NCBI GenBank assembly: GCA_030583745.1
Contig: CP129473.1
Location: 552,211 to 616,210, forward strand
Length of the DNA stretch: 64,000 nucleotides
Source: Minisyncoccota bacterium
GTDB taxonomy: Bacteria; Patescibacteriota; Minisyncoccia; Phycocordibacterales; BOKC01
Reading direction: 5' to 3'
Positions within the stretch are counted from its first letter, which is position 1. The number at the start of each line of letters is the position of its first letter. The position numbers and the translations under genes are program-made. The notes under the pieces are model-generated. The model worked only from the letters and a program-made list of their open reading frames with translations. It had not been told where the DNA came from and did no database searches. Below are positions 4,701 to 36,024 of this stretch, in pieces.

Positions 4701-5903
4701 ATGTTGGAAAAAATTTCCAACCTGTCTTTTAAAAAGGAAGATGGCGGAAGCGACATCTTAGAGATTTTGATAAAAGAAGCTTTTGAGTTGAATGCTTCAG
4801 ACATCCACATTGATCCGACAAGTACCTATTTGAATATTCGTTTCAGAATAGATGGTGGCTTATACAGACTACCCTCTGTTGATTTGGAAAAACATTCTGA
4901 AATCATTTCTAGAATTAAGATTTTGGCTGGTTTGCGGATTGACGAAAGAAGAAAGGCGCAAGATGGGCGGATGCGCTTGGAATTTCCAGGTGGTAAATTT
5001 GTTGATATCCGAATTTCAATGGTCCCCTCTTTTCACGGTGAGAGTGCTGTTTTAAGAATGCTCTATGATCGGGACGAGGCAATGAATCTTTCCTTTTTAG
5101 GTTTTGGAGACGAGAATCTTTTAAAAATAGAGAGGGCGATAAAGAAGACTGGGGGTATGATTTTATCAACGGGTCCGACTGGTTCGGGGAAAACCACCAC
5201 CTTATATTCCATACTTAAGGTCTTGAATAGAGAAGATGTTTCAATCGTTACTATAGAGGAACCGGTTGAATATTCTATCCCAAATATAAGGCAGATTCAG
5301 GTTGATTACGGTTGCCAATTAAATTTTGCCAATGGTCTGCGCTCTATTTTGCGGCAAGACCCAAATATAATAATGGTTGGTGAAATTCGTGATAAAGAAA
5401 CTGCCCAAATTGCTGTTAACGCAGCCCTTACTGGTCACCTCTTACTCTCAACTTTGCACACCAACGACTCCGTGGCCACCTTGCCACGGCTCATTGATAT
5501 GGGCGTTGAACCTTTTCTCTTGGCGTCAACTTTTAATTTGGCAATCAACCAAAGACTTGTCAAAAAGATTTGTCAAAATTGTAAAGCTGAAATGGAGATA
5601 AAAGATAAACAAAAGCGCTCGCTTGAGGAACTTTTGGGTCAAGCTTTACCCGACTCACCCTTTTACAAGGGTTTAGGATGTGAAATGTGCCACAAAAGCG
5701 GATATTCTGGTCGGACTTTGGTTGCAGAAGTTTTAAGCGTGGATGAAGAAATTCGCCGGCTTGTTATCGATAAAAAATCAGCCGGGGAAATCAGGCGAAT
5801 AGCGATAAAAAACGGGATGACACCACTACTTCACGATGGAATTTTAAAAGCTTCTCTTGGTATCACTACATTAGAAGAGGCTTTGCGTGTTGGTTATGAA
5901 TAA
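4701..5903 (+). CDS. pilB: GspE/PilB-family type IV pilus / T2SS assembly ATPase, short form lacking the N-terminal GSPII_E_N domain
   Basis: Walker A GPTGSGKTTTLYS, Asp/His boxes, and a tetracysteine motif (CQNC...CEMC) typical of PilB/GspE rather than PilT. Confidence 0.85.
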   Translation: MLEKISNLSFKKEDGGSDILEILIKEAFELNASDIHIDPTSTYLNIRFRIDGGLYRLPSVDLEKHSEIISRIKILAGLRIDERRKAQDGRMRLEFPGGKFVDIRISMVPSFHGESAVLRMLYDRDEAMNLSFLGFGDENLLKIERAIKKTGGMILSTGPTGSGKTTTLYSILKVLNREDVSIVTIEEPVEYSIPNIRQIQVDYGCQLNFANGLRSILRQDPNIIMVGEIRDKETAQIAVNAALTGHLLLSTLHTNDSVATLPRLIDMGVEPFLLASTFNLAINQRLVKKICQNCKAEMEIKDKQKRSLEELLGQALPDSPFYKGLGCEMCHKSGYSGRTLVAEVLSVDEEIRRLVIDKKSAGEIRRIAIKNGMTPLLHDGILKASLGITTLEEALRVGYE

Positions 5904-6990
5904 AATCTTTGATAAGTTAATAAATTTTAAAAAGATTCGTCGGCAAAAAATCAAAATCAGTTTGCCAGAGCAAATTAGTTTCGCCAGTCGACTTTCCTAT
6001 CTTCTGGATTCCGGAATTCCAATTTTAGAATCTATCAGAATTCTTGAAGTCAAAACTAAAAGTAAGCGGGTTAAAGATTTTTATAAAAAGATTTCCGAAG
6101 AAATCTCTTTGGGTCGGTCTTTGTCGCAAAGCTTGAGGCCGTATTTTGACGGCTTTGCTTTGAGTGTTATAGAGATTGGTCAGCAGGGCGGGTTTCTGGG
6201 CAGTAATTTGAAATATTTGGCGGAGGAGTTAAAAAAGAAAAAAGAATTGCGGAAAGGGGCGATTCAAGCCCTCGTTTACCCTTCTTTTATCGCTCTTTCA
6301 ACCTTGGGAATCATTATTTTTTTGTCAATGTATATTTTCCCAAAAATTCTACCTGTTATTTCCGGGCTCAATATAAAATTACCGCTTAGTACTCGTGCTG
6401 TTATATTTTTTAGTGATTTTTTAAGTCAGACATGGTTTTACTTCCTGATTCTTATTGTGCTTTTCACAACTCTGTTTTTTTGGGTGCTCAAAAAAAACGA
6501 TAAGTTTAAGTTTTTTGTCCACAAAAAGATTTTTCGAATCCCTTTTTGGGGTGGAATTTACCGAGACTGTCTGCTGGCAGGTTTCTGCCGAACTTTTGGA
6601 ATGTTGCTACAGGCCGGTCTATCTGTGGATCGGGCGCTGGAGATTTCTGAATCGGCTACTAGCAATCTTTTTCTTCAGTCAAAAATTTGTGAAATTCGTT
6701 CTGGTGTTTGTCGTGGTGTCAGTCTCTCTAGCTTTCTGTTTGCCGATAGCAAATTTTTTCCTTCCGATATTTCCGAGATGTCAGCGGTTGGCGAGAGAAC
6801 CGGAAATCTAGCATCGGTTTTTATCAGTCTTGGCGATTTCTATAGCGAACAGTTTTCCGACCAAATAAAAAGAATTTCTTCGGTGATAGAGCCGGGACTA
6901 CTTGTTGTCGCCGGTCTTTTGGTCGGTTTTGTTGCTGTCTCAATAATTTCACCTGTCTATGAAATCACAAAAAGTTTCCACCAAAGGTAA
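5887..6990 (+). CDS. pilC: PilC/GspF-family type IV pilus platform protein
   Basis: 367 aa polytopic membrane protein with duplicated GspF-like domains; it directly follows the ATPase gene. Confidence 0.8.
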   Translation: MLVMNKIFDKLINFKKIRRQKIKISLPEQISFASRLSYLLDSGIPILESIRILEVKTKSKRVKDFYKKISEEISLGRSLSQSLRPYFDGFALSVIEIGQQGGFLGSNLKYLAEELKKKKELRKGAIQALVYPSFIALSTLGIIIFLSMYIFPKILPVISGLNIKLPLSTRAVIFFSDFLSQTWFYFLILIVLFTTLFFWVLKKNDKFKFFVHKKIFRIPFWGGIYRDCLLAGFCRTFGMLLQAGLSVDRALEISESATSNLFLQSKICEIRSGVCRGVSLSSFLFADSKFFPSDISEMSAVGERTGNLASVFISLGDFYSEQFSDQIKRISSVIEPGLLVVAGLLVGFVAVSIISPVYEITKSFHQR

Positions 6991-7435
6991 TACTTTGCGC
7001 CTTGCCGGATTTTCAATCGCAGAAATTTTAATCGCTCTTTCAATTTTCTCTTTGGTCTTGTCTGGCGGGTTTTTTCTTAATCTAGACATGTTTACTGTTG
7101 GAAATTTTTTGGCGGAAGAAAAAGTTTTACGCGCTCTGTTAAAAGAGTCTCGAAGTCGAGCTCTGGCAAACTTTAATGAAATTTCTCACGGAGTCTTTGT
7201 TGGGTCTGATAAATTTTTCATTTTTGCTGGTGAAGACTTTTCCAATTCTGAAGTTTTGGAAGAATTTAACAGAAATAAAAAAGTGAAAATCACTCTTGAT
7301 GAAGAAGAAAATTTTGAAATAGTTTTTGAAAAACGTTCGGCGCGAGTAAAAGAAAAGAAAGAAATCATGATTTCTGACGGAGCGCGTAAAAGTTTTATTT
7401 TTATTGGTCTTGAGGGAGAGATTAAATTGCGATGA
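6959..7435 (+). CDS. prepilin-type (pseudopilin) protein
   Basis: N-terminal LAGFSIAEILIAL prepilin cleavage/methylation motif (G-F-x-x-x-E). Confidence 0.7.
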   Translation: MKSQKVSTKGNTLRLAGFSIAEILIALSIFSLVLSGGFFLNLDMFTVGNFLAEEKVLRALLKESRSRALANFNEISHGVFVGSDKFFIFAGEDFSNSEVLEEFNRNKKVKITLDEEENFEIVFEKRSARVKEKKEIMISDGARKSFIFIGLEGEIKLR

Positions 7436-8835
7436 GTTTTAGAAATAAGAATGTGAAAAGTTCTGGTTTTAGTATTTTTGAAATTCTCATCGCTCTTTTT
7501 ATTTTTGCTTCAACCGTAGCGGCAGTTTTTGTTTTGATGTTTGGCAATCAGCTAGCGGTCATTAAAGCCGGAGTTTTTCAGGAACTTTTGGCGCGCTCAC
7601 AGTTTGCGCTTGAGAGAGCTAAAGCCGACGCCGTTTTAGATTTTGAAGAAGTCTCATCTTGGAAACAAACAAAAGACGGGTTTGAAACGGAAAGAGAAGT
7701 TTCTTTGTTTTATGAGCACACAAAAGCTATTAAGACCACCACCTCTTCTCTCACAGATAAAAACTCTCGCCCCTCTGTTTTGTCAGTTTTAGTTTCAGAT
7801 TGGCAGAGCAGTATCGGACAATCAACTTGTTACAGAAAATTACCGCCAGCAAAAAAATATAAAATTCTTGGAGAAGCGTTCTCACTGCCAGGATCAACGT
7901 CTGCGTCAGGCGTGGATGTCTCTTACGGCCTTGCTTATGTCACCCTGGAGTCTGGCGCTGGCAACAATTTTTTAATTGTTGATGTGAGAGATCCAAGCGA
8001 TCCTTTTTTGTTTGAATCTTTGGCAACAGGACTAAGGTTGAATTTTCTACGTTCTGCTTCCGGCTTTGTCTTTCTCGCCGCCCATTCGCTTGCTTCTCAA
8101 TTACAAGTAATAAATTTGTCGGATTCGTCTATCTCTAATTTTAAAATTAGGTCAGACGATCCTGAAATCAAAGACCCCGGTCAAGGTGTGAGCTTACACT
8201 ATTCAAAAAATAAAATTTATTTAGGAACGGCGGCGTCTGAAAATTACGGACCGGAATTTCATATTCTGGACGTGAAAGACCCCCTGAATCCGAATCTAGT
8301 TTGGTCTTGGGACATAGGCAGTCGAGTTAATGACATTGTTGTGAAGAATAACTTTGCTTTTTTGGCCTCGGTCAATCCGCACCCGTTAAGAATCGTTGAT
8401 TTGAATAGCCCGCAATCCGAACCGATTAAGATTTCGGTCGATTCTTCCAGCAACCCTAATCATTCCGGACAAAAATTATTTTTATTAGACGATCTTCTGG
8501 TATTAGGTCGATCTGTTTTAAATCCAAATGACGATTACAATGAGCTTTTGGTTTTTAATATGAAACAGCCAGAATCGCCTGAATTTATTACTGGATTATC
8601 AATCAAAGAGAGTGTGCGAGACTTAATTTTCAGAGAAGGTTTGATTATTGCAGTAACAACTTTTGACAATGAAAACAAAATTAGGTTTTTTGATTTCCAA
8701 GACGGTGTTTTGGATGAAAATTCTTTTAATATAGAACTACCGGGGAAACCGACTTCCTTGGATTGTGAAGATGACATTTTTTATGTTGTGACAGAACAGC
8801 CAAGTAAATTAGTAATAATCGCGCCGGAAAAGTAA
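7432..8835 (+). CDS. large prepilin-motif protein with a beta-propeller-like C-terminal region (possible pilus tip/minor pilin)
   Basis: N-terminal SSGFSIFEILIAL motif; 467 aa; repeated hydrophobic blades (LIVDV..., LVLGRSV...). Confidence 0.6.
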   Translation: MSFRNKNVKSSGFSIFEILIALFIFASTVAAVFVLMFGNQLAVIKAGVFQELLARSQFALERAKADAVLDFEEVSSWKQTKDGFETEREVSLFYEHTKAIKTTTSSLTDKNSRPSVLSVLVSDWQSSIGQSTCYRKLPPAKKYKILGEAFSLPGSTSASGVDVSYGLAYVTLESGAGNNFLIVDVRDPSDPFLFESLATGLRLNFLRSASGFVFLAAHSLASQLQVINLSDSSISNFKIRSDDPEIKDPGQGVSLHYSKNKIYLGTAASENYGPEFHILDVKDPLNPNLVWSWDIGSRVNDIVVKNNFAFLASVNPHPLRIVDLNSPQSEPIKISVDSSSNPNHSGQKLFLLDDLLVLGRSVLNPNDDYNELLVFNMKQPESPEFITGLSIKESVRDLIFREGLIIAVTTFDNENKIRFFDFQDGVLDENSFNIELPGKPTSLDCEDDIFYVVTEQPSKLVIIAPEK

Positions 8836-13982: not shown

Positions 13983-14055
13983 GGTGCGGGATGGGAGAAT
14001 CGAACTCCCGACCGCGGTTTGGAAAACCGCTATTATACCATTTAACTAATCCCGC
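13981..14055 (-). tRNA. tRNA-Gly (anticodon UCC)
   Basis: The minus-strand sequence GCGGGAT-TA-GTTAAATGGTATAAT-A-GCGGT-TTTCCAA-ACCGC-GGTC-GGGAG-TTCGATT-CTCCC-ATCCCGC-A-CC folds as a cloverleaf. The 7-nt anticodon loop TTTCCAA gives UCC. The terminal A of CCA is not encoded. Confidence 0.85.
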
Positions 14056-14082
14056 CCTTTTTCTAAACTCTAAAATACTAGC

Positions 14083-14123
14083 AAAAAACAAAAACCTCGA
14101 CAAATTTGTCGAGGTTTTTGTTT
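14083..14123. terminator. bidirectional intrinsic terminator (perfect 20-nt palindrome CCTCGACAAATTTGTCGAGG flanked by an A-tract and a T-tract)
   Basis: A-run, then the palindrome, then TTTTTG; it can terminate transcripts from either strand. Confidence 0.65.
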
Positions 14124-14387
14124 CTGAAAAGTCAGTGAAAGTTACATAGAACCTTCTCCACCTCCTTCTGTTCCTTCAGTTTCAGGAGCCGGGGTAGTTT
14201 CTTCTCCGTTGTCTACTGGTGTTTGATTGTCGTCCATTGTTTTTTATATTAACCCTGCAAAACCTGCCATCAAAAATTTATTTTAGCGGCAGACAAATCA
14301 GGATGTATTGATAATTATTAAATCCGGCTTTTAGCCAGATTCTTCCCTATTATACACTATATCTAGAAAAGTCAAAATATTTATCCC

Positions 14388-14714
14388 TCAATTATCAACA
14401 TCTAAAGCTTTCTGGAAGTCGTCATTTACATCCAACTTATTTGTTTTTTCTAAACCGCATGAGAGGCATTTGTGCAACAATAGATTTTTCTGGCTTCTCT
14501 TGAAAAAAGAAATCGGCTTCATGAGTCCACCGCAGTCCGAGCCCCTGTCCCCCGGGTTTATATCTACATGCCGGCTCCAAAGGCAAACGGGGCAATGATT
14601 GGTGTAGCCGTTTCCTTTCACAAACTGTCTGCAATTCAAACACTCAAAGTCCTCTATTTTTCTTTGAAATCTTTTCATTAAAACATTCATTGTTCTTGAG
14701 AAATATGCTAGCAT
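14388..14714 (-). CDS. RNHCP-domain protein
   Basis: GYTNHCPVCLWSRH matches the RNHCP signature; Cys-rich (CLNC..., CLSCGLEK). Confidence 0.65.
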   Translation of the reverse strand: MLAYFSRTMNVLMKRFQRKIEDFECLNCRQFVKGNGYTNHCPVCLWSRHVDINPGDRGSDCGGLMKPISFFKRSQKNLLLHKCLSCGLEKTNKLDVNDDFQKALDVDN

Positions 14715-14735
14715 AGCGATGTTGAAGAAAAAAGA

Positions 14736-14806
14736 CGGAGCGTAGTATAACGGTAGTATACATGGTTTGGGACCATGCGGTCCGAGTTCGATTCTCGGCG
14801 CTCCGA
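14736..14806 (+). tRNA. tRNA-Pro (anticodon UGG)
   Basis: Acceptor stem CGGAGCG/CGCTCCG; anticodon stem CATGG/CCATG with loop TTTGGGA gives UGG; T-arm CCGAG-TTCGATT-CTCGG; no encoded CCA. Confidence 0.85.
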
Positions 14807-14944
14807 ACGAAACGAAGTGGGGTGAGGGGTGAGCAAGCCAACTTCTTGGCCTGTGTTCGGAATAGAACGATGGAGCATGTTATGAGGGTGGGAAACACTC
14901 TCGGTGTCTCGATCAAATAAAGATTTGGTTTCTATCTAATTTTT

Positions 14945-15358
14945 CTATTCCGGCAGAATGTCCTCAATCATCCGGACTTTTGCTGTTTTTCGGTCCGGGC
15001 TTAATAGAATTGCAATTACCGCGAATTTCCAATCAGAATTTTCCATTTTATTTTGTAATAAATACGTTTGGACAGCCATGCCGATTCTCTTTATCTTATG
15101 CTTCTCGACTCTTTCTTCCGGCCGATTCAATTCCCTATCTTCTTTCTCAAGACTAGTTTTGACTTCAATGAAATAATAAAAAATGTCTTTTTTAGAGACA
15201 ATGTCTATTTCCCCAAATTTTCGTCTAAAATTACGATTAAGTATTTTATAACCCTTATTTTTGAGGAATTTGCAGGCAATTTCCTCACCTAACTCCCCTG
15301 TTTCTAAATGTTCCGGCAATTTTTTATTGTCTTTTTGACTTTTAAATGAAAATACCAT
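14945..15358 (-). CDS. yraN: UPF0102/YraN-family endonuclease-like protein
   Basis: GEIDIV...FIEVK pattern and overall 137-aa architecture typical of YraN. Confidence 0.7.
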   Translation of the reverse strand: MVFSFKSQKDNKKLPEHLETGELGEEIACKFLKNKGYKILNRNFRRKFGEIDIVSKKDIFYYFIEVKTSLEKEDRELNRPEERVEKHKIKRIGMAVQTYLLQNKMENSDWKFAVIAILLSPDRKTAKVRMIEDILPE

Positions 15359-15556
15359 TTTTACGGCTTAAACAAAGGATTTTTGGGTGAAAAATAATAA
15401 TTTTTTGTCCAATAAAATTTTGTCCTTTATGCACATTTCCCCAGAGTTATCCACAGATATTGTCGTTAAGAAGTTATATTTTGATGCTAGTGTGTCCGCA
15501 CGATAATTTTGTGATAGCGCACGGCACAGGGTAAAAACCAATGGTAAAAATTTAGT

Positions 15557-15628
15557 GTGCGGGTAGGGAGAATCGAACTCCCGTCTGATCCTTGGCAAGG
15601 ACCTGTCATACCACTAAACTATACCCGC
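15557..15628 (-). tRNA. tRNA-Gly (anticodon GCC)
   Basis: Minus-strand GCGGGTA...GGTCC-TTGCCAA-GGATC...GGGAG-TTCGATT-CTCCC-TACCCGC-A; the anticodon loop gives GCC. Confidence 0.85.
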
Positions 15629-15901
15629 AGTATCATTAAAACTTTTAACTTGTAAAAGTTAACGATAACCATAATAACAGAATAATAAATTCATTGTCCA
15701 GAGTAATTTGTTGTTAGTTTTGGTTATCGGTCATCATTTATTAGTTATTATAAACAATGTTTTTCTTTGTCGGAGTTCGGATTACTGAAATTCTAACGAA
15801 TTTCAGTCTTGGCGGCAAATTCTTTGTTCTTTTAAATTATTAAAAATGAAAAGACCACCGTTCGCTTTCGCTACTAGGCGGCCTGGCTGTGGAGGGATGT
15901 T

Positions 15902-16351
15902 CTACTCGTTCATTCCCACCATCTTCTTGAGCTCATGCAGTAAGCTCTTCTTCGGATTGGGATTGAGGTCGTTGCTGACGTCCCAACTTGCACCCGAGTG
16001 GATGATATGCAGGATGCGCTCACGCAACTTCATCACATCCTTCGCCGAAGTGCCCTGCACGGTTAAGATCAAGTTTCGAGAGCCGAACCGCAGAAGATGC
16101 TGATCGTTCTGTTCGTACTCCTTGAACCCATTGCGACACACTTGTCCATGTGCGTTGCCGAGGTAGAAGTAAGCTTCCAACGGCTCCTGGGGGCCGCGCC
16201 AACCCTCTCGCGGATCTGTGGAAGAGACATTAATCCCCATCCTCCAACTCACAGTCATCCCCTCCGGAACGACGAAGTCATCCGGCAGGGTGACGAACGA
16301 GAGTTTGCGGACGACTTCTCCTTCGCGATTCAAAAGAACTAGACTCGACAT
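15902..16351 (-). CDS. hypothetical 149-aa protein in a GC-rich (~55%) island; no recognisable family
   Basis: Uninterrupted 149-codon ORF; strong ribosome-binding site (AAAGGAG-7nt-ATG); sigma70-like promoter upstream; composition unlike the host. Confidence 0.6.
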   Translation of the reverse strand: MSSLVLLNREGEVVRKLSFVTLPDDFVVPEGMTVSWRMGINVSSTDPREGWRGPQEPLEAYFYLGNAHGQVCRNGFKEYEQNDQHLLRFGSRNLILTVQGTSAKDVMKLRERILHIIHSGASWDVSNDLNPNPKKSLLHELKKMVGMNE

Positions 16352-16440
16352 GGTACTACTCCTTTCTTCTTTGCGTCTTGAGTTGTCCCAAGATCGCTGA
16401 GTGAAGTGAACAAGCCATCATGGTGATTGCTCTAAATATT

Positions 16441-16468
16441 AGTATAGCAATTTATACTAGTTTGTCAA
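16441..16468 (-). promoter_or_regulatory. sigma70-like promoter TTGACA-N16-TATACT driving the GC-rich gene at 15902..16351
   Basis: Minus-strand reading: ccTTGACAaactagtataaattgcTATACTaat. Confidence 0.55.
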
Positions 16469-16547
16469 GGTTTCGTGAAGATAAAAAACAGCCATATTTC
16501 AGGTCATTTTTCACTCAAAAATCCAATGATTAACTTTTCCAACGCGG

Positions 16548-16619
16548 TGCCCCCGGCAGGAATTGAACCCACATCAACCGGTTCGAAGCCGGTTATTCTA
16601 TCCATTAAACTACGGGGGC
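16548..16619 (-). tRNA. tRNA-Arg (anticodon UCG)
   Basis: Minus-strand GCCCCCG-TA-GTTTAATGGATAGAAT-A-ACCGG-CTTCGAA-CCGGT...GGGTTCAATTCC...CGGGGGC-A-CC; the anticodon loop gives UCG. Confidence 0.8.
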
Positions 16620-20792: not shown

Positions 20793-20818
20793 TGCCTGAC
20801 GTTTTTCAGGCCTTTTTG
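20793..20818 (+). terminator. rho-independent terminator
   Basis: GCCTGAC-GTTTTT-CAGGC hairpin followed by CTTTTTG. Confidence 0.5.
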
Positions 20819-20899
20819 TGTATAAAAGTGTTTGTAAAAATTTAGATTAGATAGTATATTTTGTTTCGGGTCAAATTTTATGAATCTAATTTTTTTTAA

Positions 20900-21508
20900 A
20901 TGAAAAAATCAATAATCGTCTTAGTTATTGTTGTAGCTCTGGTTGTAGTCGGAGCGGTTTGGGCTTTCAACACCAACCGAGCCGTCGCACCGGAGAATGG
21001 AGTTGTCCAAAATGGGGAGGTTGATACTTCCGATTGGCAGACGTATCGAAATGAGGAGTTAGGGTTTGAGTTTAGGTATCCAAGGGAGTGGGGGGAAGTT
21101 GCAGTTTCTCCGGTAACTCCAATAGTTTCAATGGTTATAGGCATACCAGGTAATGATCAGAGTAAAATTCGCTTTAACATAAATTCTGCTCAAAGAACTG
21201 ATCAACAGTTGAAAAACTTAGTATATTTACAGGTAGAGGGAGATCAGTGTGAATTCAATCTAGCAACCTCAAGAGAACTTCCAAATAGTAAATTTTCCAG
21301 TATAAGAATGGAGCAAACACAAACACGACTATCCTGGGAAGAATGTCTGACTATTTCTAATACTATTCCAGACGATAGAAAAGAAAGAAAAGTTATTAGT
21401 CCTCACGCCTATACCGTTGTCTATCTTAATGACAACGAAGTTCCAGAAGTTATGCGAAAAGATTATCAGGAATTTAAATTATTTATAAAATCGTTTAAAA
21501 CGATATGA
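20900..21508 (+). CDS. hypothetical secreted/membrane-anchored protein
   Basis: N-terminal TM/signal segment (IIVLVIVVALVVVGAVWAF); 202 aa. Confidence 0.5.
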   Translation: MKKSIIVLVIVVALVVVGAVWAFNTNRAVAPENGVVQNGEVDTSDWQTYRNEELGFEFRYPREWGEVAVSPVTPIVSMVIGIPGNDQSKIRFNINSAQRTDQQLKNLVYLQVEGDQCEFNLATSRELPNSKFSSIRMEQTQTRLSWEECLTISNTIPDDRKERKVISPHAYTVVYLNDNEVPEVMRKDYQEFKLFIKSFKTI

Positions 21509-22218
21509 TGATCAAACAAAAACATCTTTTTATCACTATTCTTGTTTTGGGTCTGTTCACTCTATCTTTACTTGCTGTAGCAGACACCACGAATTCTACA
21601 CAATCTCTTATTTCTAATTCTGAAACAGAAAAAGATGTTGTGGAGGGTAAATCAAAAACCACTAGTTCTAGCGACCCGATTCTCCCAATAATTACTGATA
21701 CACAAAAGCCAGCAACAACCTATACTCACCCAGAACTCGGTTATTCTTTTGAGTATTTATCAGATTGGTTGCTCGGCACTTATAAAAGCAACGGCTATGA
21801 GGCAGTAGGACTATGGGACCCCGTAGCACAACAGCAAGAGGGCGCGGAAGGCCATCTCATACAAGGGGCGAAGATTGAAATATCCACCTGCAACTGCGCT
21901 CCAATAAGTTCTTTCAAAAACACAATCGTAGAACGAACCGGAAAAGGCCCTGAAACAATAACCAGTGTTTCTGAATCAACCCTTAATATTTATAAGGACC
22001 AAACACCAGTATCAGTTGTAAGAGTAGATTACAAAACAGAACTCGGGGGAGGTAAAAGCGTATATTTTGTTGGTAGAGATGGATTGCTTTATGTGCTCAC
22101 TTTAGGGATTCCGAATCTTGAAACTTTGGGAACTGGCCAACTTCAAGAATACAGGTCTGTTTTTGAGGACGTGATTCAATCATTTACCTTTAGCGAAATT
22201 GCTTATGAAAACCACTAA
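21505..22218 (+). CDS. hypothetical secreted protein
   Basis: Signal-peptide-like N-terminus; 237 aa; start and stop overlap the neighbouring genes. Confidence 0.5.
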   Translation: MMIKQKHLFITILVLGLFTLSLLAVADTTNSTQSLISNSETEKDVVEGKSKTTSSSDPILPIITDTQKPATTYTHPELGYSFEYLSDWLLGTYKSNGYEAVGLWDPVAQQQEGAEGHLIQGAKIEISTCNCAPISSFKNTIVERTGKGPETITSVSESTLNIYKDQTPVSVVRVDYKTELGGGKSVYFVGRDGLLYVLTLGIPNLETLGTGQLQEYRSVFEDVIQSFTFSEIAYENH

Positions 22219-25200
22219 GATATTAAGCATAATTTTTGGAACACTCATTTTCTTTGCTGTAGTTTTATCTGTTTTTGCCAACCCAAGAATATTATATCTA
22301 CCTTTTACTGATCTTGAAGTTTTTCTCAAGCACGGATGGTACTATGATGAACAGGAAACAGATGAGCATAAAGGAATAGATTATTTCAAAGGACAGTCAG
22401 GAAACTGGCAAGAGTTTGAAATTCTCGCTGTGGCGGGAGGAGTAGCTGAGTATAGACCAAATGGTAGTCCAACGTGGGGTAATTATGTTGTTATTGACCA
22501 TCAAACCGGCTCACCCCCTTATTATACCGTTTACGCTCATCTAGAAAGCTCACCCTTACCCGCTTATACACAAACGGCAGTTAATGAAGGTGATTTAATA
22601 GGTATTGCTGGTGCTACTGGGTTCACCGATCCACCGGGAACAGTTCATCTACATCTTGAATGGTCAAAGGACGGAATAGGGCAGTTTGGTACTAAACTTG
22701 ATCCTTATGGGATTAAAAAATATTACACATATTATCCTGGTTATCCAAATTTTATAGATTGTGGCATTGACCTTCAAAATCCAGGTGTTTTCTGGTGGAC
22801 AGAATGTCCGCCGATTCCACCTGGTGGAGGCGGGGATGATCCACTTCCGGTAATAAATGTTTCCGGAAATATCACCGAAGACACAACATGGAAAGCGGGG
22901 TATGTGTATTTAATTCAGGGGTCAGTGACGGTGGTTGAAAATGTAACTTTAACTTTAGAGCCCGGAGTAATCGTCAAATTTCAAAACACCTCCTCCCGCT
23001 TCAACATCTACGGAAACCTCTACGCCCAAGGAACCCAACAAAACAAAATCCACTTCACCTCATACAAAGACGATACGGTCGGCGGTGATTCAAACGGAGA
23101 TGGCAACAATTCATCGCCGGCTCCCAGCAATTGGCGGCAAATCACTGTCTTTGAGAATGGTTCAGCCGATCTTTCCCACGCCGTCTTGCGCTATGGCGGC
23201 TACACTTGCGCCTACTGCGGCATCAATCCCGGAGGTCTTTTAGTGGACGGCGGACAACTTACCCTCGCCGACACTTTGATTGAGAAGAACAATTATGGGA
23301 TATATTTCAAAAACATCACCGGCACTACAAGCATTTCCAACTCCACCATTTCTAACAACACTTCTTATGGCATCTTCTCAACCGGCGGCAACCACGACAT
23401 ATATCTCTCCAACTCCACCATCTCCAACCATTCCGATACCGGTATCTATGCTTCCGCCAGCGCCACAACTACTGTTTCGCTTTTGAACAATACTTTCCAG
23501 AACAACCAAACAAGAGACGGTTACTTTTCCATTTCCAACATTAACTTCATCAACCAAGGGAACACTACTTCAGGCACCGGAGGCAACGGCTTCCACATTT
23601 CAGGCACTCTTTTAGGCAACCAAATCTGGAACCCTGGTGTCCCTTACATTATCAGCACCGTCACCTTACCGGCCGATACCACTCTCACAATTAACCCCAA
23701 TACCATCGTCAAATTTCAAAACACCTCCTCCCGCTTCAACATCTACGGAAACCTCTACGCCCAAGGAACCCAACAAAACAAAATCCACTTCACCTCATAC
23801 AAAGACGATACGGTCGGCGGTGATTCAAACGGAGATGGCAACAATTCATCGCCGGCTCCCAGCAATTGGCGGCAAATCACTGTCTTTGAGAATGGTTCAG
23901 CCGATCTTTCCCACGCCGTCTTGCGCTATGGCGGCTACACTTGCGCCTACTGCGGCATCAATCCCGGAGGTCTTTTAGTGGACGGCGGACAACTTACCCT
24001 CGCCGACACTTTGATTGAGAAGAACAATTATGGGATATATTTCAAAAACATCACCGGCACTACAAGCATTTCCAACTCCACCATTTCTAACAACACTTCT
24101 TATGGCATCTTCTCAACCGGCGGCAACCACGACATATATCTCTCCAACTCCACCATCTCCAACCATTCCGATACCGGTATCTATGCTTCCGCCAGCGCCA
24201 CAACTACTGTTTCGCTTTTGAACAATACTTTCCAGAACAACCAAACAAGAGACGGTTACTTTTCCATTTCCAACATTAACTTCATCAACCAAGGGAACAC
24301 TACTTCAGGCACCGGAGGCAACGGCTTCCACATTTCAGGCACTCTTTTAGGCAACCAAATCTGGAACCCTGGTGTCCCTTACATTATCAGCACCGTCACC
24401 TTACCGGCCGATACCACTCTCACAATTAACCCCAATACCATCGTCAAATTTCAAAACACCTCCTCCCGCTTCAACATCTACGGAAACCTCTACGCCCAAG
24501 GAACCCAACAAAACAAAATCTACTTCACCTCATACAAAGACGATACGGTCGGCGGTGATTCAAACGGAGATGGCAACAATTCATCGCCGGCTCCCAGCAA
24601 TTGGCGGCAAATCACTGTCTTTGAGAATGGTTCAGCCGATCTTTCCCACGCCGTCTTGCGCTATGGCGGCTACACTTGCGCCTACTGCGGCATCAATCCC
24701 GGAGGTCTTTTAGTGGACGGCGGACAACTTACCCTCGCCGACACTTTGATTGAGAAGAACAATTATGGGATATATTTCAAAAACATCACCGGCACTACAA
24801 GCATTTCCAACTCCACCATTTCTAACAACACTTCTTATGGCATCTTCTCAACCGGCGGCAACCACGACATATATCTCTCCAACTCCACCATCTCCAACCA
24901 TTCCGATACCGGTATCTATGCTTCCGCCAGCGCCACAACTACTGTTTCGCTTTTGAACAATACTTTCCAGAACAACCAAACAAGAGACGGTTACTTTTCC
25001 ATTTCCAACATTAACTTCATCAACCAAGGGAACACTACTTCAGGCACCGGAGGCAACGGCTTCCACATTTCAGGCACTCTTTTAGGCAACCAAATCTGGA
25101 ACCCTGGTGTCCCTTACATTATCAGCACCGTCACCTTACCGGCCGATACCACTCTCACAATTAACCCCAATACCATCGTCAAATTTCAAAACACCTCCTC

Positions 25201-25756
25201 CCGCTTCAACATCTACGGAAACCTCTACGCCCAAGGAACCCAACAAAACAAAATCTACTTCACCTCTTACCGAGACGACACAATCGGAGGTGACTCCAAC
25301 GGAGATGGCAACAATTCATCGCCGGCTCCCAGCAATTGGCGGCAAATCACTGTCTTTGAGAATGGTTCAGCCGATCTTTCCCACGCCGTCTTGCGCTATG
25401 GCGGCTACACTTGCGCCTACTGCGGCATCAATCCCGGAGGTCTTTTAGTGGACGGCGGACAACTTACCCTCGCCGACACTTTGATTGAGAAGAACAATTA
25501 TGGGATCTACCGGCGGACTAGCGGTAATGTTTCCGTCACTCAAAGCTCAATTAAAGAGAATACCTCCTACGGCATATATCACACCGGCACCGGGACAACG
25601 ACCGCCACTTCAAACTGGTGGGGAGATCCGAGCGGGCCTTATCATCCGCAAAACAATCCAAACGGACAAGGCGACAGAGTCTCAAATAATGTGGAATTCA
25701 GCTCCTGGTTAATTGAGGATCCTTTTTGGAAACAATTTATATTTCCCAAAAAGTAG
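22199..25756 (+). CDS. giant secreted protein: N-terminal M23 (LytM) peptidase domain followed by tandem right-handed beta-helix (NosD/pectin-lyase-like) repeats
   Basis: HKGIDYF...VVIDHQ...HLHLEW M23 zinc-site motifs. Three identical 245-aa repeats rich in NxT/S and I-Y-G/S-N-T-I-S-N rungs. Confidence 0.75.
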   Translation: MLMKTTKILSIIFGTLIFFAVVLSVFANPRILYLPFTDLEVFLKHGWYYDEQETDEHKGIDYFKGQSGNWQEFEILAVAGGVAEYRPNGSPTWGNYVVIDHQTGSPPYYTVYAHLESSPLPAYTQTAVNEGDLIGIAGATGFTDPPGTVHLHLEWSKDGIGQFGTKLDPYGIKKYYTYYPGYPNFIDCGIDLQNPGVFWWTECPPIPPGGGGDDPLPVINVSGNITEDTTWKAGYVYLIQGSVTVVENVTLTLEPGVIVKFQNTSSRFNIYGNLYAQGTQQNKIHFTSYKDDTVGGDSNGDGNNSSPAPSNWRQITVFENGSADLSHAVLRYGGYTCAYCGINPGGLLVDGGQLTLADTLIEKNNYGIYFKNITGTTSISNSTISNNTSYGIFSTGGNHDIYLSNSTISNHSDTGIYASASATTTVSLLNNTFQNNQTRDGYFSISNINFINQGNTTSGTGGNGFHISGTLLGNQIWNPGVPYIISTVTLPADTTLTINPNTIVKFQNTSSRFNIYGNLYAQGTQQNKIHFTSYKDDTVGGDSNGDGNNSSPAPSNWRQITVFENGSADLSHAVLRYGGYTCAYCGINPGGLLVDGGQLTLADTLIEKNNYGIYFKNITGTTSISNSTISNNTSYGIFSTGGNHDIYLSNSTISNHSDTGIYASASATTTVSLLNNTFQNNQTRDGYFSISNINFINQGNTTSGTGGNGFHISGTLLGNQIWNPGVPYIISTVTLPADTTLTINPNTIVKFQNTSSRFNIYGNLYAQGTQQNKIYFTSYKDDTVGGDSNGDGNNSSPAPSNWRQITVFENGSADLSHAVLRYGGYTCAYCGINPGGLLVDGGQLTLADTLIEKNNYGIYFKNITGTTSISNSTISNNTSYGIFSTGGNHDIYLSNSTISNHSDTGIYASASATTTVSLLNNTFQNNQTRDGYFSISNINFINQGNTTSGTGGNGFHISGTLLGNQIWNPGVPYIISTVTLPADTTLTINPNTIVKFQNTSSRFNIYGNLYAQGTQQNKIYFTSYRDDTIGGDSNGDGNNSSPAPSNWRQITVFENGSADLSHAVLRYGGYTCAYCGINPGGLLVDGGQLTLADTLIEKNNYGIYRRTSGNVSVTQSSIKENTSYGIYHTGTGTTTATSNWWGDPSGPYHPQNNPNGQGDRVSNNVEFSSWLIEDPFWKQFIFPKK
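22970..25505. repeat. 735-bp tandem repeat: 3 essentially identical copies (22970, 23705, 24440) plus a diverged partial 4th copy (25175..~25505)
   Basis: Period 735 nt (245 codons). Copies 1-2 differ from copies 3-4 by one SNP (CAC/TAC, His/Tyr). The 4th copy carries a ~40-nt patch with 9 mostly synonymous substitutions. Confidence 0.95.
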
Positions 25757-26254
25757 CTATCTTACAACTTTCATTGGAATGTTCTCGTCAATTTCAGCCG
25801 ACCGGGCGTAAATTATTATTCTATTTCCTTCCTCGGCGCCCGTCTTGCCGATATAGTAGCCGGTATTGTAATCAGTTTTGTCTTTTAGGTGCCCGTCTTT
25901 TGGGTCAATTGGCATTTCGGCAATATATTTTGGCACTAAGCAATCATACAGATCAATTTCTCCTTGCGAGCTTCCAGATTTTATAACTGTGGTTGGCAAG
26001 CCATTGTCATCCTGACTTGTTAGAATTTCTTTTTCTACTCCGTTGCAGGTAAAGATGCCTCTATTTTCAGCCATATTTTGGCCGACAGCATTTAAAATAG
26101 CGTGGATTGCGCTAGCCCTCTGCGTGTCGCGGGCTTGGGCGAACTGATGCCCCGGATTAATAGCAACTAAAACTATGCCAGCCAAAATGGCCAGAATCCC
26201 AATGACTATTAGAACTTCAATTAGAGTAAATCCCAGTTTTTTGTTTGTTTCCAT
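25757..26254 (-). CDS. type IV pilin-like protein (prepilin N-terminal methylation domain)
   Basis: KKLGFTLIEVLIVIGILAILAGIVLVAINP shows the canonical G-F-T-L-I-E motif; 165 aa. Confidence 0.8.
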   Translation of the reverse strand: METNKKLGFTLIEVLIVIGILAILAGIVLVAINPGHQFAQARDTQRASAIHAILNAVGQNMAENRGIFTCNGVEKEILTSQDDNGLPTTVIKSGSSQGEIDLYDCLVPKYIAEMPIDPKDGHLKDKTDYNTGYYIGKTGAEEGNRIIIYARSAEIDENIPMKVVR

Positions 26255-27784: not shown

Positions 27785-28810
27785 TTATTGTGACCTCATA
27801 CTTATGACAACCTCCACAAGCGCCTGATGAGCTTCTTGTATTGTGTTTCTCAAGTTGTGGACGAGTTCTCTAATTCTAGCAAATTCTTCCGTCAGGTTTT
27901 CTCCTGTCAAAATTTCTTGGTAGTTTTGGGATACTGTCGTTAATTTGGCGCTAGCGTCTTCGATTTTTGTTCTGGCTTCGGCCAAAAGATTTTTAGCTTG
28001 GGTTAGGTCTTGGCCTTCAGCTTCACTTTTTTCGATTCTTGATTCAATTCTGTCCGCCAAATTATTTAATCTCTCTATTGCGGCAGTCATTCTGGTCAGC
28101 ATATTACTCATGTATTTTAGGTAATTTCTGACGCGCATTTCAACGCCTCTTTCAATCTGCTCTGGGCTCATTGTTCCAGCTAGTTCTGCTCTGCTGACAG
28201 CTCTTTCAACTAGAGCCGGAGAGACATTCTTGCTTCTCAAGCTAACCTCCTCTTCTTGCATTGAGACCGCCAAACACCTTCTCTGAAGCTCTGATGCTCT
28301 GACTGTTTGACACTTTTCCAAAACTCCAGAAATTCTAGGAAGATCTTCTTGATATCTAGTGAAGTTGTTCAAAAGGAGTAGGGCATCAAGTGTGTTGACT
28401 GTTCTGTCGTTATTTAAGTCGGCTGGGCAACTTGTGCTAACCGCAGGACAAGGTCCGAACGATTCGACTAATATTTTGAAGTCTGTGAAATCAACGTGAC
28501 CGTCGCCATTAAGGTCGCCAAAGATTCTGTCTTCTGGCGGTACCAAAGAGGCAATTTGAGTTAAACTTGCCCGACCAGGCATTGCTCCGCTTCTGATTGG
28601 CGAAACTGATGCCGGATTCATTCTGGAATCGCGGATAACTGGATTAACTCCTTGCACATTTTCTTCTGGGACTGGAATAATATTCCCCAAAGTTCTATTG
28701 ATTTCTTCGTTTATCCTGTGGGAAGGCGCTTCTTGCTCAACTTCAGCATAAACGGCTGGCGCTGAAAAAATCAGCCCCAAAGACAAAACAAAAATGAAAT
28801 TTTTTTTCAT
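27785..28810 (-). CDS. secreted protein with dockerin-like calcium-binding repeats and a coiled-coil C-terminal half
   Basis: Signal peptide MKKNFIFVLSLGLIFSAPAVYA; DLNGDGHVDFTDF and DLNNDRTVNTLD dockerin/EF-hand-like motifs. Confidence 0.55.
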   Translation of the reverse strand: MKKNFIFVLSLGLIFSAPAVYAEVEQEAPSHRINEEINRTLGNIIPVPEENVQGVNPVIRDSRMNPASVSPIRSGAMPGRASLTQIASLVPPEDRIFGDLNGDGHVDFTDFKILVESFGPCPAVSTSCPADLNNDRTVNTLDALLLLNNFTRYQEDLPRISGVLEKCQTVRASELQRRCLAVSMQEEEVSLRSKNVSPALVERAVSRAELAGTMSPEQIERGVEMRVRNYLKYMSNMLTRMTAAIERLNNLADRIESRIEKSEAEGQDLTQAKNLLAEARTKIEDASAKLTTVSQNYQEILTGENLTEEFARIRELVHNLRNTIQEAHQALVEVVISMRSQ

Positions 28811-30618: not shown

Positions 30619-30799
30619 TTATTTTATTTATTTTTCTAAAAATTAAGTCCGCCGGAGGGCGAACTTCAAGTGTCCTTATTTTACTCTTTTGCAATTTATT
30701 AGTCAAATTCGGGGTGTAAGAATGGGTGTAATACAACGTCTTCATTGGTGGTCGAAACGAAAGATTACTTTAGATTTTACTTTATAAACAAAGTTAATT

Positions 30800-31579
30800 A
30801 TGAAAAATTCAAAATTTATTAGAGTCAGTTTTTCTGTGGTTTTGGTTTTTGTCTTGGCTTTCGTCGTGTCTGGTGTGGTTTTTGCCCAATCAGACAATGA
30901 TACGAGAGTTAATGACAGGGCAAAATCGATTGAGCCGATTTCAGTAATGCCGGTAAGTTTGCAATTCGGCAATATTCTTAGAGTCGGTTCAGACAACGAA
31001 AATGTCAGACAGTTGCAAGTCAATCTTAAACGCTTGGGTTATTTCCCAGCTGAAGTTTCTGAAACTGGTTTCTTTGGTTCAATAACCGAAGAAGCGGTTA
31101 GAAAATTTCAGATTGCCAGAAGTATTCCTGTTTCAGGAATTGCTGATAGTGTGACTCTTGGCGCTTTGATGAAAACTGCCAACCCAGCTAGAGTTTCTGC
31201 CGAAAGTCTTGTTGGTACACGCTGTCTTGCTGATTGGAATAATGACGGCCTCGTTGATACAAGAGATTTACTGGCTTTCTTGAACGCCTGGTCTGCTAAA
31301 GACATCTCGGCTGATATAAACAGAGATAACGTTGTAGATCACCTAGATTTTGGGATGTTTGTCAGAGTTTGGAATCAGGGCTGTCCCGCACCAAATCTAG
31401 ACAAATGTTCTTCAACTGACTTCAACAAGGACAACGTAATTGATACTAGGGACTTAACCTCTTATCTAAACGCTTGGACTTTGAGAGACATCTCGGCTGA
31501 TATGAATGGCAATGGCTCTGTTGAGCAAGAAGATTTTCAAACCTTCCTTGATCTCTGGAAAGAGTGTTCTGTAAGATAA
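30800..31579 (+). CDS. secreted protein with a peptidoglycan-binding (PG_binding_1-like) domain and dockerin-like repeats
   Basis: Signal peptide; NVRQLQVNLKRLGYFPAEVSETGFFGSITEEAVRKFQ resembles PG_binding_1; DWNNDGLVDTRD, DINRDNVVDHLD and DMNGNGSVEQED repeats. Confidence 0.6.
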   Translation: MKNSKFIRVSFSVVLVFVLAFVVSGVVFAQSDNDTRVNDRAKSIEPISVMPVSLQFGNILRVGSDNENVRQLQVNLKRLGYFPAEVSETGFFGSITEEAVRKFQIARSIPVSGIADSVTLGALMKTANPARVSAESLVGTRCLADWNNDGLVDTRDLLAFLNAWSAKDISADINRDNVVDHLDFGMFVRVWNQGCPAPNLDKCSSTDFNKDNVIDTRDLTSYLNAWTLRDISADMNGNGSVEQEDFQTFLDLWKECSVR

Positions 31580-34233: not shown

Positions 34234-34272
34234 TTATAATTCAATTGTAGAAATTTTTCTTAAACATTTTTT

Positions 34273-36024
34273 ATGCACGTTAACTCGGAACAATTAAAAG
34301 AATTTATCGTTGACTCCGGTCTAATTTCTCAAAAGGATTTAAAAGAAGCGGAAAAAAAATCTAAATCTGAAAAAAAACAACTGGAAGACGTGCTTCTTAA
34401 AAATAATTTGTTAAATACCGATGAGCTTCGGAGGATTCAAGCTATGGTTTTAGGCATTCCCTTTGTAGATCTTAAAAATCAAAAGATTGATTTTGAAGTT
34501 TTGTCTCTAATTCCGGAGCCGGTGGCTAGAAGTCACAGCATTGTGGCTTTTCGAAAGACTAAAGATTCTCTTGAGGTGGCAATGCTTGATACTGATGATT
34601 TACCAGCGATTGATTTTGTCAGGAAGCGGGTTGGCTTGAAGATTCTACCCCGCTTGACCAATGAAGAGTCAATTAGAGATGTTATTCTCCAGTATCAAAA
34701 ATCACTTAAAGCTGAATTCGGAGAAATAATCAAAAAAGAATCAGATTCTCTGAAAATGGTGACAGAAGGCGGACCCGAGGAGATGTCGGGCGACGATTTG
34801 AAAAAGCTGGCGGAGGATTTGCCGGTCGTAAGGATTGTTGACACTCTTCTCAAACACGCAATTATTCAAAAGGCGTCCGATATTCATATTGAACCACTGG
34901 AGAGCCAAGTTGTTGTTCGTTATCGCATAGATGGAATTTTGCGCGATGCGATGGTTTTGCCGAAAAATGTCGCTTTAAGCATAATTGCTAGAATAAAAGT
35001 TCTTGCTAACTTGAAATTGGATGAAAAGCGCTTGCCGCAAGACGGTCGTTTCAGGATTGATATGGCCAGCGAGAAAGTTTCTTTTCGCGTCTCAACTCTG
35101 CCGGTGTATTACGGAGAAAAAGCTGTTATGCGCCTTTTGCGCGAGAACGCCTCCGGTTTTACTTTGGAATTACTTGGTTTTCACGGTGAGGCCCTAGAAA
35201 GAATTCACACTGCCACACGGCTTTCAAACGGAATGATTTTGACCACCGGTCCGACCGGTTCCGGAAAAACCACAACTTTGTATTCGGTTTTAGAAATTTT
35301 GAATACCCCGGATGTAAATATTTCAACCATTGAGGATCCAGTTGAATATCAAATGAATAGAGTGAATCAAACCCAGGTCAAACCGGAAATTGGACTGACT
35401 TTTGCTGCCGGATTGAGAACTCTTGTCCGTCAAGATCCAGACATAATTATGGTTGGCGAAATTCGAGACAATGAGACAGCTTCTTTGGCGGTCAACGCCG
35501 CCCTGACTGGTCATTTAGTGTTGTCCACTTTGCACACCAATTCGGCTGCGGGCGCTATTCCTCGTCTGATCGACATGAAGGTTGAGCCGTTTCTTATTGT
35601 TTCAACCGTTAATGTTGTGATTGCTCAACGCTTGGTTAGAAAATTAACGGAAAAAAGGGAGAAACATTTTCTGACTCAAGCCGAATTAGACAATTTAGGC
35701 AAAATGGTTGATCTGGAAAGAATTTTGGATTTTCTTAAAGAGGAAAAAATTGTTGACGCAAAAGCCGATTGGAAAGAAATTCCTTTTTTCAAACCAAAGC
35801 CGGGTGAAGAATCGGAAGATGGATTTAGCGGTAGAATCGGAATATATGAAGTTTTAAAAATCTCACCTTCTATAAAAGAATTAATCTTACAGAGTAAAAC
35901 CGACAAAGAAATAGAAGAGCGAGCTAAAAAAGAGGGAATGATGACAATGATTGAAGATGGGATTTTTAAGGCGGTTCAGGGCTACACTACTATTGAAGAG
36001 ATTTTAAGGGTTATTTCAGAATAA
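34273..36024 (+). CDS. pilB: GspE/PilB-family type IV pilus assembly ATPase (full length, with N-terminal GSPII_E_N domain)
   Basis: 583 aa; Walker A GPTGSGKTTTLYS; N-terminal domain present; no tetracysteine motif. Confidence 0.85.
   Translation: MHVNSEQLKEFIVDSGLISQKDLKEAEKKSKSEKKQLEDVLLKNNLLNTDELRRIQAMVLGIPFVDLKNQKIDFEVLSLIPEPVARSHSIVAFRKTKDSLEVAMLDTDDLPAIDFVRKRVGLKILPRLTNEESIRDVILQYQKSLKAEFGEIIKKESDSLKMVTEGGPEEMSGDDLKKLAEDLPVVRIVDTLLKHAIIQKASDIHIEPLESQVVVRYRIDGILRDAMVLPKNVALSIIARIKVLANLKLDEKRLPQDGRFRIDMASEKVSFRVSTLPVYYGEKAVMRLLRENASGFTLELLGFHGEALERIHTATRLSNGMILTTGPTGSGKTTTLYSVLEILNTPDVNISTIEDPVEYQMNRVNQTQVKPEIGLTFAAGLRTLVRQDPDIIMVGEIRDNETASLAVNAALTGHLVLSTLHTNSAAGAIPRLIDMKVEPFLIVSTVNVVIAQRLVRKLTEKREKHFLTQAELDNLGKMVDLERILDFLKEEKIVDAKADWKEIPFFKPKPGEESEDGFSGRIGIYEVLKISPSIKELILQSKTDKEIEERAKKEGMMTMIEDGIFKAVQGYTTIEEILRVISE

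Follow-up and report, generated by a model that had tools for sequence, protein, structure and literature searches.

How one gene of an uncultivated bacterium comes to hold three nearly identical copies of a 735-nucleotide (nt) unit, and what a protein built in this manner may do, are the questions raised by a stretch of 64,000 nt from a Minisyncoccota bacterium (assembly GCA_030583745.1, contig CP129473.1, positions 552,211 to 616,210), hereafter the window. The repeat lies within a gene (22205-25756; positions are those of the window, on its forward strand unless otherwise indicated) which encodes an M23 peptidase fused to an array of beta-helix modules. We consider it probable that recent recombination extended the rod of this protein from two modules to four, and that the product is an exported M23 endopeptidase with a rod of variable length, directed at a host cell.

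A repeat search and base-by-base comparison placed all copies in register with a period of 735 nt, starting at 22970, 23705, 24440 and 25175. Copy 1 (22970-23704) and copy 2 (23705-24439) are identical, copy 3 (24440-25174) differs from both at a single nucleotide, and partial copy 4 (25175-25506, 332 nt), which is the start of the original last module (b1), is 97% identical to the unit, in agreement with the original prediction of three copies and a diverged partial fourth. Past 25506, nucleotide identity is lost and similarity to the unit is found at the protein level only, which leaves the predicted start of the array in place and moves its end by one nucleotide from 25505. The array (22970-25506) measures 2537 nt, or 3.45 units, remains in frame (735 = 3 x 245) and has the layout (a1 a2)x3 followed by a1. 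A chance repeat was rejected, identity over 735 nt three times being far beyond chance. Tandem Repeats Finder, which handles periods of up to 500, reported no array. Three open reading frames (ORFs) of 113 amino acids (aa) in another forward frame (23637-23978, 24372-24713 and 25107-25448) are echoes of the repeat and provide no evidence of genes. The unit is rich in Asn (13%), Thr (13%), Gly (12%) and Ser (11%). Its codon usage was also recorded: G+C at third codon positions (GC3) reached 0.60 and C at these positions (C3) 0.53, versus a GC3 of 0.28-0.41 and a C3 of 0.11-0.25 in the neighbouring genes measured, while the C-terminal module of allele P0001, with a GC3 of 0.53, resembles the unit. 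This usage could reflect a foreign origin, codon bias linked to expression or conversion that favours G+C.

Two kinds of marker distinguish the copies. At offset 81 (counted from 0 at the start of each copy), a single C/T site reads CAC (His) in copies 1 and 2 (C at 23051 and 23786) and TAC (Tyr) in copies 3 and 4 (T at 24521 and 25256), so that the single-nucleotide polymorphism predicted to split the copies in this way was confirmed. Over offsets 0-331, copy 4 is separated from copy 3 by nine substitutions only, all of which lie at offsets 92-122 (25267-25297), in the codons of a loop motif, SY(K/R)DDT(V/I)GGDSNGDG. Six of the nine are synonymous and the other three lead to K->R and V->I; these counts were as predicted, and the length of the patch was corrected from 40 nt to 31 nt (42 nt when the C/T site is counted). 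Were nine differences scattered at random over 332 nt, all would lie within such a 31-nt stretch with a probability of about 5e-8. A comparison of synonymous and nonsynonymous differences, as proposed together with the original prediction, gave proportions of 0.78 (pS) and 0.09 (pN), respectively. Because synonymous sites are saturated at such a pS, the patch is a tract of old, diverged and functional sequence; the acquisition of new mutations after duplication was rejected on this ground. It is relict or imported sequence under purifying selection, its age matching that of the split between alleles, and module B of strain L005 shows three of the nine states. At the C/T site, both bases also occur in other strains, Tyr in module A of allele P0002 and His in strain L025 and in module B of allele P0001. 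The mosaic expected from very recent duplication or ongoing gene conversion was thus found, as shown by the pS and by the presence of C and T elsewhere, and either process may have produced it.

These markers may be accounted for by a simple scheme. The ancestor would have had the layout N - a1 - a2 - b1 - b2, in which a1 and b1 are near-identical direct repeats of 332 nt, 735 nt apart. Whole a1+a2 units would be gained or lost in frame whenever a1 and b1 underwent unequal crossing-over or replication slippage, and two such events would yield the marker order C, C, T, T+patch without any new mutation. The junction of one event would have to lie in the 10-nt interval (offsets 82-91) that separates the C/T site from the patch, and the patch of the last copy would be a remnant of old diverged sequence or an import of it. 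Because the conspecific loci L001-L007 carry two-module proteins, the ancestor was, as judged from these alleles, already a two-module protein, which corrects the earlier reading. We infer the order and number of the recombination events from the markers. With regard to timing, synonymous divergence (dS) is 0 among copies 1-3, whereas it reaches 0.075-0.115 between the gene and that of strain L025; this suggests either that expansion followed the split from L025 or that the copies are being homogenised.

Is the array real, or was it produced by assembly? On the left, Logan contigs from seven independent runs contain the upstream genes of this strain, 98-100% identical, and stop 28-30 nt past 22970, at 22999 (L015, L016, L020 and L026), 22998 (L017 and L019) or 22997 (L027). 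The short-read runs with contigs that break in this way are SRR23332755, SRR24881069, SRR29564167, SRR29564157, SRR28209418, DRR771683 and DRR258781. Logan assemblies are, as we understand it, built on a k = 31 graph, and such a graph must branch at this very place if the a2-to-a1 junction exists, which accounts for these stops; the one-base shift of L017 and L019 fits a variant upstream base found in both. On the right, two contigs, L008 and L009 (JAANMT010019135.1 and JAANMX010002495.1), start at 25408, 99 nt before 25506, and are 99.5-99.8% identical to the window. The repeat is therefore real at both edges. A short-read metagenome-assembled genome (MAG) with flanks about 98% identical to those of the window, L025 (GCA_016860785.1, BOKC01000004.1), has an intact ORF of 448 aa (5776-7122), which corresponds exactly to N + one a1 + b2 (1183 - 3 x 245), with zero full units and an a1 95.5% identical to that of the window. 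This form is most simply an assembly collapse, since the left edge is a breakpoint also in runs that carry the upstream-gene variant of L025; it is possible that it is a genuine one-module allele. The warning that such repeats are prone to collapse was borne out by the seven k = 31 contigs and the two assemblies that break at the edges and by the collapsed 448-aa form.

These same observations bear on another explanation, which we regard as unlikely, namely that the repeat is real while its copy number is a product of assembly, the true genome or a mixed population having more or fewer units and the identity of the copies coming in part from polishing. Short-read assemblies do stop at the repeat, and the sister MAG does show a zero-unit form of 448 aa. 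However, the source is a single contig of 691,769 bp, probably a closed genome, on which seven proteins encoded near the repeat correspond exactly to NCBI records within WKZ26344-WKZ26352 (locus tags QY304_03065/03070) of a Candidatus Paceibacterota MAG. A contig of such length suggests long reads spanning the 2.5 kb of the array, and the ordered markers C, C, T, T+patch would be unusual for a looped or collapsed graph path. An array of the same kind was moreover found in an independent assembly of a distant relative, L014, described below. The copy number of 3.45 is treated here as the probable true one. Searches for further copies gave little. No record was returned by exact protein look-ups with the TTG-start and ATG-start forms, and neither an exact search for the unit-to-unit junction nor a protein-pattern scan gave a match in GTDB species representatives. 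The a2 segment was absent from JGI metagenome contigs by exact search, and the protein-pattern scan of these contigs returned only the two that start inside the repeat. A word-index homologue search with one module gave 11 remote matches only and no copy of the unit.

The locus was clearly variable between conspecific strains. L001-L007 share synteny with the window and have flanks 97-99% identical to it, and their two-module proteins, of 710-723 aa, have beta-helix cores that are only 13-70% identical. The window protein was compared segment by segment with P0001, P0002 and other alleles. Its M23 head is 98.6% identical to those of P0001 and P0002 and its C-terminus is 89-91% identical. Within the unit, the first 47 aa are 98% identical to module A of P0002, the next 64 residues reach at best 56%, with module B, and the last 134 residues are 43-48% identical to anything found. 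The cores of P0001 and P0002 are as divergent from each other as from the window protein. A different M23 head is present in P0004, which is identical to P0002 from the Pro/Gly linker onwards, both upstream genes having been swapped along with the head; the strain in which these genes, up1 and up2, were replaced together with the type of M23 head is L007. As the cores diverge amid flanks of 97-99% identity, and as heads and upstream genes are exchanged together, the locus is a hypervariable cassette, and its recombination joints lie at linkers and motifs that are conserved.

Amplification of modules also recurs in the wider family. An exhaustive HMMER search with the module gave 7144 cluster representatives at E <= 1e-3 and 1444 at E <= 1e-30; single proteins contained as many as 22 matched stretches, and the highest identity to the module of the window was 54%. 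The 119 closest homologues analysed contain 2-7 complete modules each, with a median identity of 47% for the best internal pair, and three have internal modules at least 90% identical. One of these three is P0041, a distant member of the family without an M23 head, encoded by L014 (ENA ERZ25039459 contig_49016, 5360-7666), in which three copies of a 669-nt unit are 99-100% identical while a fourth reaches 84%. This array independently repeats the pattern of the window and shows that recent amplification of modules is recurrent. By Pfam annotation, the hydrolase heads of the relatives include M23, matrixin, LCAT-type lipase, subtilase and thermolysin domains.

From a structural point of view, the protein had been described as 1185 aa long, and an ORF of this length does begin at an alternative TTG start at 22199 (22199-25756); the start is more probably the ATG at 22205, which matches that of the orthologues P0001 and P0002 and gives 1183 aa. 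A hydrophobic helix at the N-terminus, KILSIIFGTLIFFAVVLSVFA (22217-22279), also modelled as a helix by AlphaFold (residues 2-24), would act as a signal peptide, possibly cleaved after VFA, or as a membrane anchor and would account for export and localisation. It is followed by the Peptidase M23 domain (22364-22675), recognised by Pfam (PF01551) over residues 56-159 in the numbering of the 1185-aa form, with an E-value of 2.9e-12 and a score of 47.1 bits where 28.7 is the cut-off. The HxxxD, intervening His and HxH motifs of M23 peptidases are intact, as HKGID (22367-22381; residues 55-59 in the 1183-aa numbering), YAHLE (22532-22546; 110-114) and HLHLE (22646-22660; 148-152). The zinc-binding and catalytic roles of these motifs are those established for LytM and lysostaphin. 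Sequence matches in the PDB were DipM, the closest solved relative, phage 2638A ORF007 and zoocin A. A Pro/Gly linker, PPIPPGGGGDDPLP (22808-22849), joins head and rod and serves as a recombination joint for head swapping. The rod itself (22847-25711) matched Pfam Beta_helix (PF13229; 95.2 bits, E 4e-27) and NosD (PF05048; 44.4 bits), comprises four structural modules starting near 22859, 23603, 24338 and 25073, and ends with an NWWG...PWL-type cap (25613-25711) 15 residues before the stop.

The predicted structure of the rod was clear. AlphaFold2 modelled residues 215-1183 as an all-beta structure of three-strand coils with a mean predicted local distance difference test score (pLDDT) of 92.7 and a predicted template modelling score (pTM) of 0.80, and the modelled beta-strands run uninterrupted through every module junction. 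An earlier model of residues 1-760 gave an equally confident beta-helix and a poor M23 domain. The structure prediction that had been proposed was thereby carried out, and the proposed architecture, an M23 head followed by beta-helix modules, was upheld by Pfam, by the PDB sequence matches and by AlphaFold2. By contrast, the 245-aa DNA unit does not coincide with one structural module, as had been supposed: a structural module has a TTW/IWNPG cap at its start and ends near GNGFHIS, and the DNA unit starts some 35-40 residues into it, so that the phase of the repeat is offset from that of the fold. Coil counts in the model suggest that one unit would add roughly 4 nm to the rod. Each module holds an invariant acidic loop, SYKDDTVGGDSNGDG, in the codons of which the patch lies.

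Foldseek comparisons with the PDB and with viral models returned beta-helix proteins throughout, including PL6 lyases, Ag43, pertactin, AlgE4 and tailspikes, at template modelling (TM) scores of 0.1-0.3. Such matches lead to a second explanation, in which the modules would be enzymes of the polysaccharide lyase, hydrolase or epimerase type, and in which amplification would raise catalytic or glycan-binding valency instead of length. The best of them do include PL6 alginate lyases, the AlgE4 epimerase, GH87 enzymes and phage tailspike depolymerases, and the acidic loop of each module, DD..GGD.NGDG, looks able to bind calcium. But the similarity is low (TM 0.1-0.3, about 10% identity), and non-enzymatic adhesins (pertactin, Ag43 and PfbA) are matched equally; the matches with PL6 lyases reflect weak global fold similarity only (E 5e-6 to 1e-3, TM 0.1-0.2). 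No catalytic residues were identified in the modules, and the occurrence of 2-22 modules on many hydrolase heads in relatives fits a scaffold better. We find this explanation doubtful, and somewhat more so than an artefactual copy number.

The protein would rather act at the cell surface or after secretion, against the wall of another cell, with the rod as an element of reach, binding or spacing whose length changes in steps of one unit. We favour such an interface with another cell over the role of a housekeeping autolysin because the M23 head is intact, an export signal precedes it, the rod is modular and, from the model, probably rigid, heads are interchangeable in relatives and allelic diversity within the species is extreme. 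The role first proposed, in surface, predatory or epibiotic attachment, is likewise a putative one. M23 peptidases of Patescibacteria have been suggested by others, without a test, to be bacteriolytic (PMC11393006). That the protein is instead a housekeeping autolysin or division factor working on the cell's own wall, in the manner of DipM, EnvC or NlpD, with neutral expansion of the repeat, seems to us about as improbable as an enzymatic rod. DipM is indeed the closest solved relative of the M23 domain by sequence and is also its NCBIfam match, an N-terminal anchor would place this domain at the cell's own envelope, and the neighbouring genes are of the housekeeping type. Division proteins, however, are conserved, whereas here the cores are 13-70% identical and the M23 head is swapped amid flanks of 97-99% identity; the catalytic HxxxD and HxH motifs are intact, unlike those of DipM; and related rods bear proteases and lipases in place of M23.

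Several points weigh against a recombination-grown, host-directed rod. The scheme of two crossovers requires a junction within the 10-nt interval, and a short conversion tract or a point mutation explains the C/T pattern equally well. The count of three full units comes from the source assembly alone, and if long reads were polished with short ones, minor differences between the copies could have been lost. None of the other public proteins and contigs searched holds the exact unit, which leaves copy-number polymorphism of this allele without direct demonstration, and the high GC3 of the unit (0.60 versus 0.28-0.41 in the neighbours) is a further such point. On the side of the protein, the M23 domain was modelled at low confidence (pLDDT 30-45), and the Foldseek matches, being those of any beta-helix, assign no function to the rod from its fold. 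Scans with Pfam and NCBIfam revealed no LPXTG motif, no S-layer-homology domain and no other family of anchors, and the only hydrophobic segment is the N-terminal one, directly before the M23 head; if this helix is an uncleaved anchor, the enzyme would stay near the membrane and would not be projected by the rod.

The gene is the third of an operon. It is preceded by up1 (20900-21508), the first gene, which encodes a secreted or anchored PsbP_2-like protein (Pfam PsbP_2, E 1e-6), and by up2 (21505-22218), which encodes a second PsbP_2-like secreted protein (Pfam PsbP_2, E 1e-5, just under the cut-off). As up2 shares 4 nt with the end of up1 and 14 nt with the start of the main gene, the three form an overlap-coupled operon; a promoter-like site (20832-20860) follows a terminator-like site (20794-20811) ahead of it. 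The trio of up1, up2 and M23-rod gene recurs in L010/L011 in a different genomic context. The upstream pair, which is conserved and in every case directly precedes the M23-beta-helix gene with overlapping ends, lies at 20900-22218 in the window, 6777-8002 in L007 and 909-2122 in L010; the L007 pair is 69% and 43% identical to that of L010 and cannot be aligned with that of the window beyond the signal peptide. The PsbP_2-like proteins may be accessory or immunity-like partners of the M23-beta-helix protein. More speculatively, the three-gene cassette would be a host-range or prey-specificity determinant of a Paceibacterota episymbiont, a cellular counterpart of the phage tailspike-lysin, with cores and heads exchanged at linkers, reach tuned by 245-aa units and copies homogenised by conversion; this extended proposal has, in our opinion, a low probability. 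As a part of it, ongoing gene conversion might be the cause of the C-rich third codon positions of the unit.

The genes around this operon are mostly of the housekeeping type and include those for S15, an NYN protein, trigger factor, NusA, PNPase, RNase Y, EF-G and a pyrophosphatase; S15, NYN, trigger factor, NusA, pyrophosphatase and pilin neighbours are present in all strains. The pilin neighbour, a type IV pilin-like gene on the reverse strand (25757-26254), faces the main gene tail to tail, and its stop codon directly adjoins that of the main gene. Its product is 88.5-100% identical among conspecific strains, so that in some of them it varies more than the housekeeping genes on either side. 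About 8 kb away lies a gene for a type IV pilus ATPase (34264-36021). Two dockerin type I proteins are encoded at 27785-28810 (reverse strand) and 30788-31576 (forward strand), one of which also has a PG_binding_1 and an EF-hand-like segment; the organism may thus possess a calcium-dependent system of surface assembly. Further upstream, a stretch at about 15458-16545, beside four tRNA genes (13985-16619), gave no alignment to the conspecific loci, two of which (L001 and L003) carry Fic and HTH_17 genes nearby. This stretch may be a small strain-variable island.

The means by which uncultivated Paceibacterota or Patescibacteria recognise and exploit partner cells are largely obscure. With an intact wall-cutting head, a rod that lengthens or shortens stepwise and alleles that diverge strongly among conspecific strains, the locus described here is a concrete candidate for interaction specificity at the strain level. 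It can be followed by polymerase chain reaction or long reads in wastewater-type and other metagenomes. Public short-read MAGs shorten or collapse the gene (448 versus 1183 aa), so that protein catalogues under-represent such alleles. Length variation through identical repeats, mostly described for immunoglobulin (Ig)-like stalks of cultivated pathogens, extends to continuous beta-helix solenoids in bacteria of the candidate phyla.

Among known systems, phage tailspikes (P22/HK620) and autotransporters (Ag43, pertactin) share the right-handed beta-helix fold with the window protein, a generic similarity only, and tailspikes also share mosaic replacement at the strain level. A prophage tail or tailspike gene was nevertheless rejected, given the housekeeping context and an N-terminus made of a signal or anchor and an M23 domain, with no virion-binding region. 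An autotransporter was rejected too, as the Pfam scan showed no C-terminal beta-barrel translocator and the cap lies 15 residues before the stop. Lysostaphin, LytM and zoocin A are similar in combining an M23 catalytic domain (HxxxD, HxH) with a non-catalytic domain presumed to target the wall, which is an SH3b-type or other small wall-binding domain in these enzymes and a four-module beta-helix rod here. The modules themselves belong with uncharacterised multi-module right-handed parallel beta-helix repeat proteins (PF13229, Beta_helix_4 PF28492 and NosD PF05048) of Patescibacteria, Bacteroidota and others, which have the same TTW-type cap, FTSxKDDxxGGDxNGDG loop and NWWG...PWL end, and each of which holds 2-22 modules, attached to a range of heads or to sorting domains. 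In most of these proteins, however, the modules are old and diverged (median best internal identity 47%), whereas the copies in the window are near-identical at the nucleotide level.

The closest concept is that of the Periscope Proteins (SasG/Aap, Rib/alpha C and the SHIRT domains of Sgo_0707), monomeric surface proteins whose near-identical tandem repeats build up a rod and are gained or lost through homologous recombination (Whelan et al., 2021, PMC8201768; reviewed in PMC9704523). The window protein departs from them in its repeat, a continuous beta-helix of 245 aa instead of a separate Ig-like, ubiquitin-like or three-helix domain of 50-165 aa, and in its anchoring, no C-terminal anchor having been found and the hydrophobic helix lying beside the head, so that the logic of projection would be reversed or absent. 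Its host is an uncultivated Paceibacterota bacterium, and conspecific strains carry very divergent alleles, the zero full units of L025 being perhaps a collapse. In both cases, nevertheless, some members are cell-wall hydrolases and short reads fail to resolve the repeats, long tandem repeats with highly identical DNA lie within a single gene (here three 735-nt copies with 0-1 differences), folded units are lined up into a rod, as predicted here by the model, and changes in length are attributed to homologous recombination between repeats.

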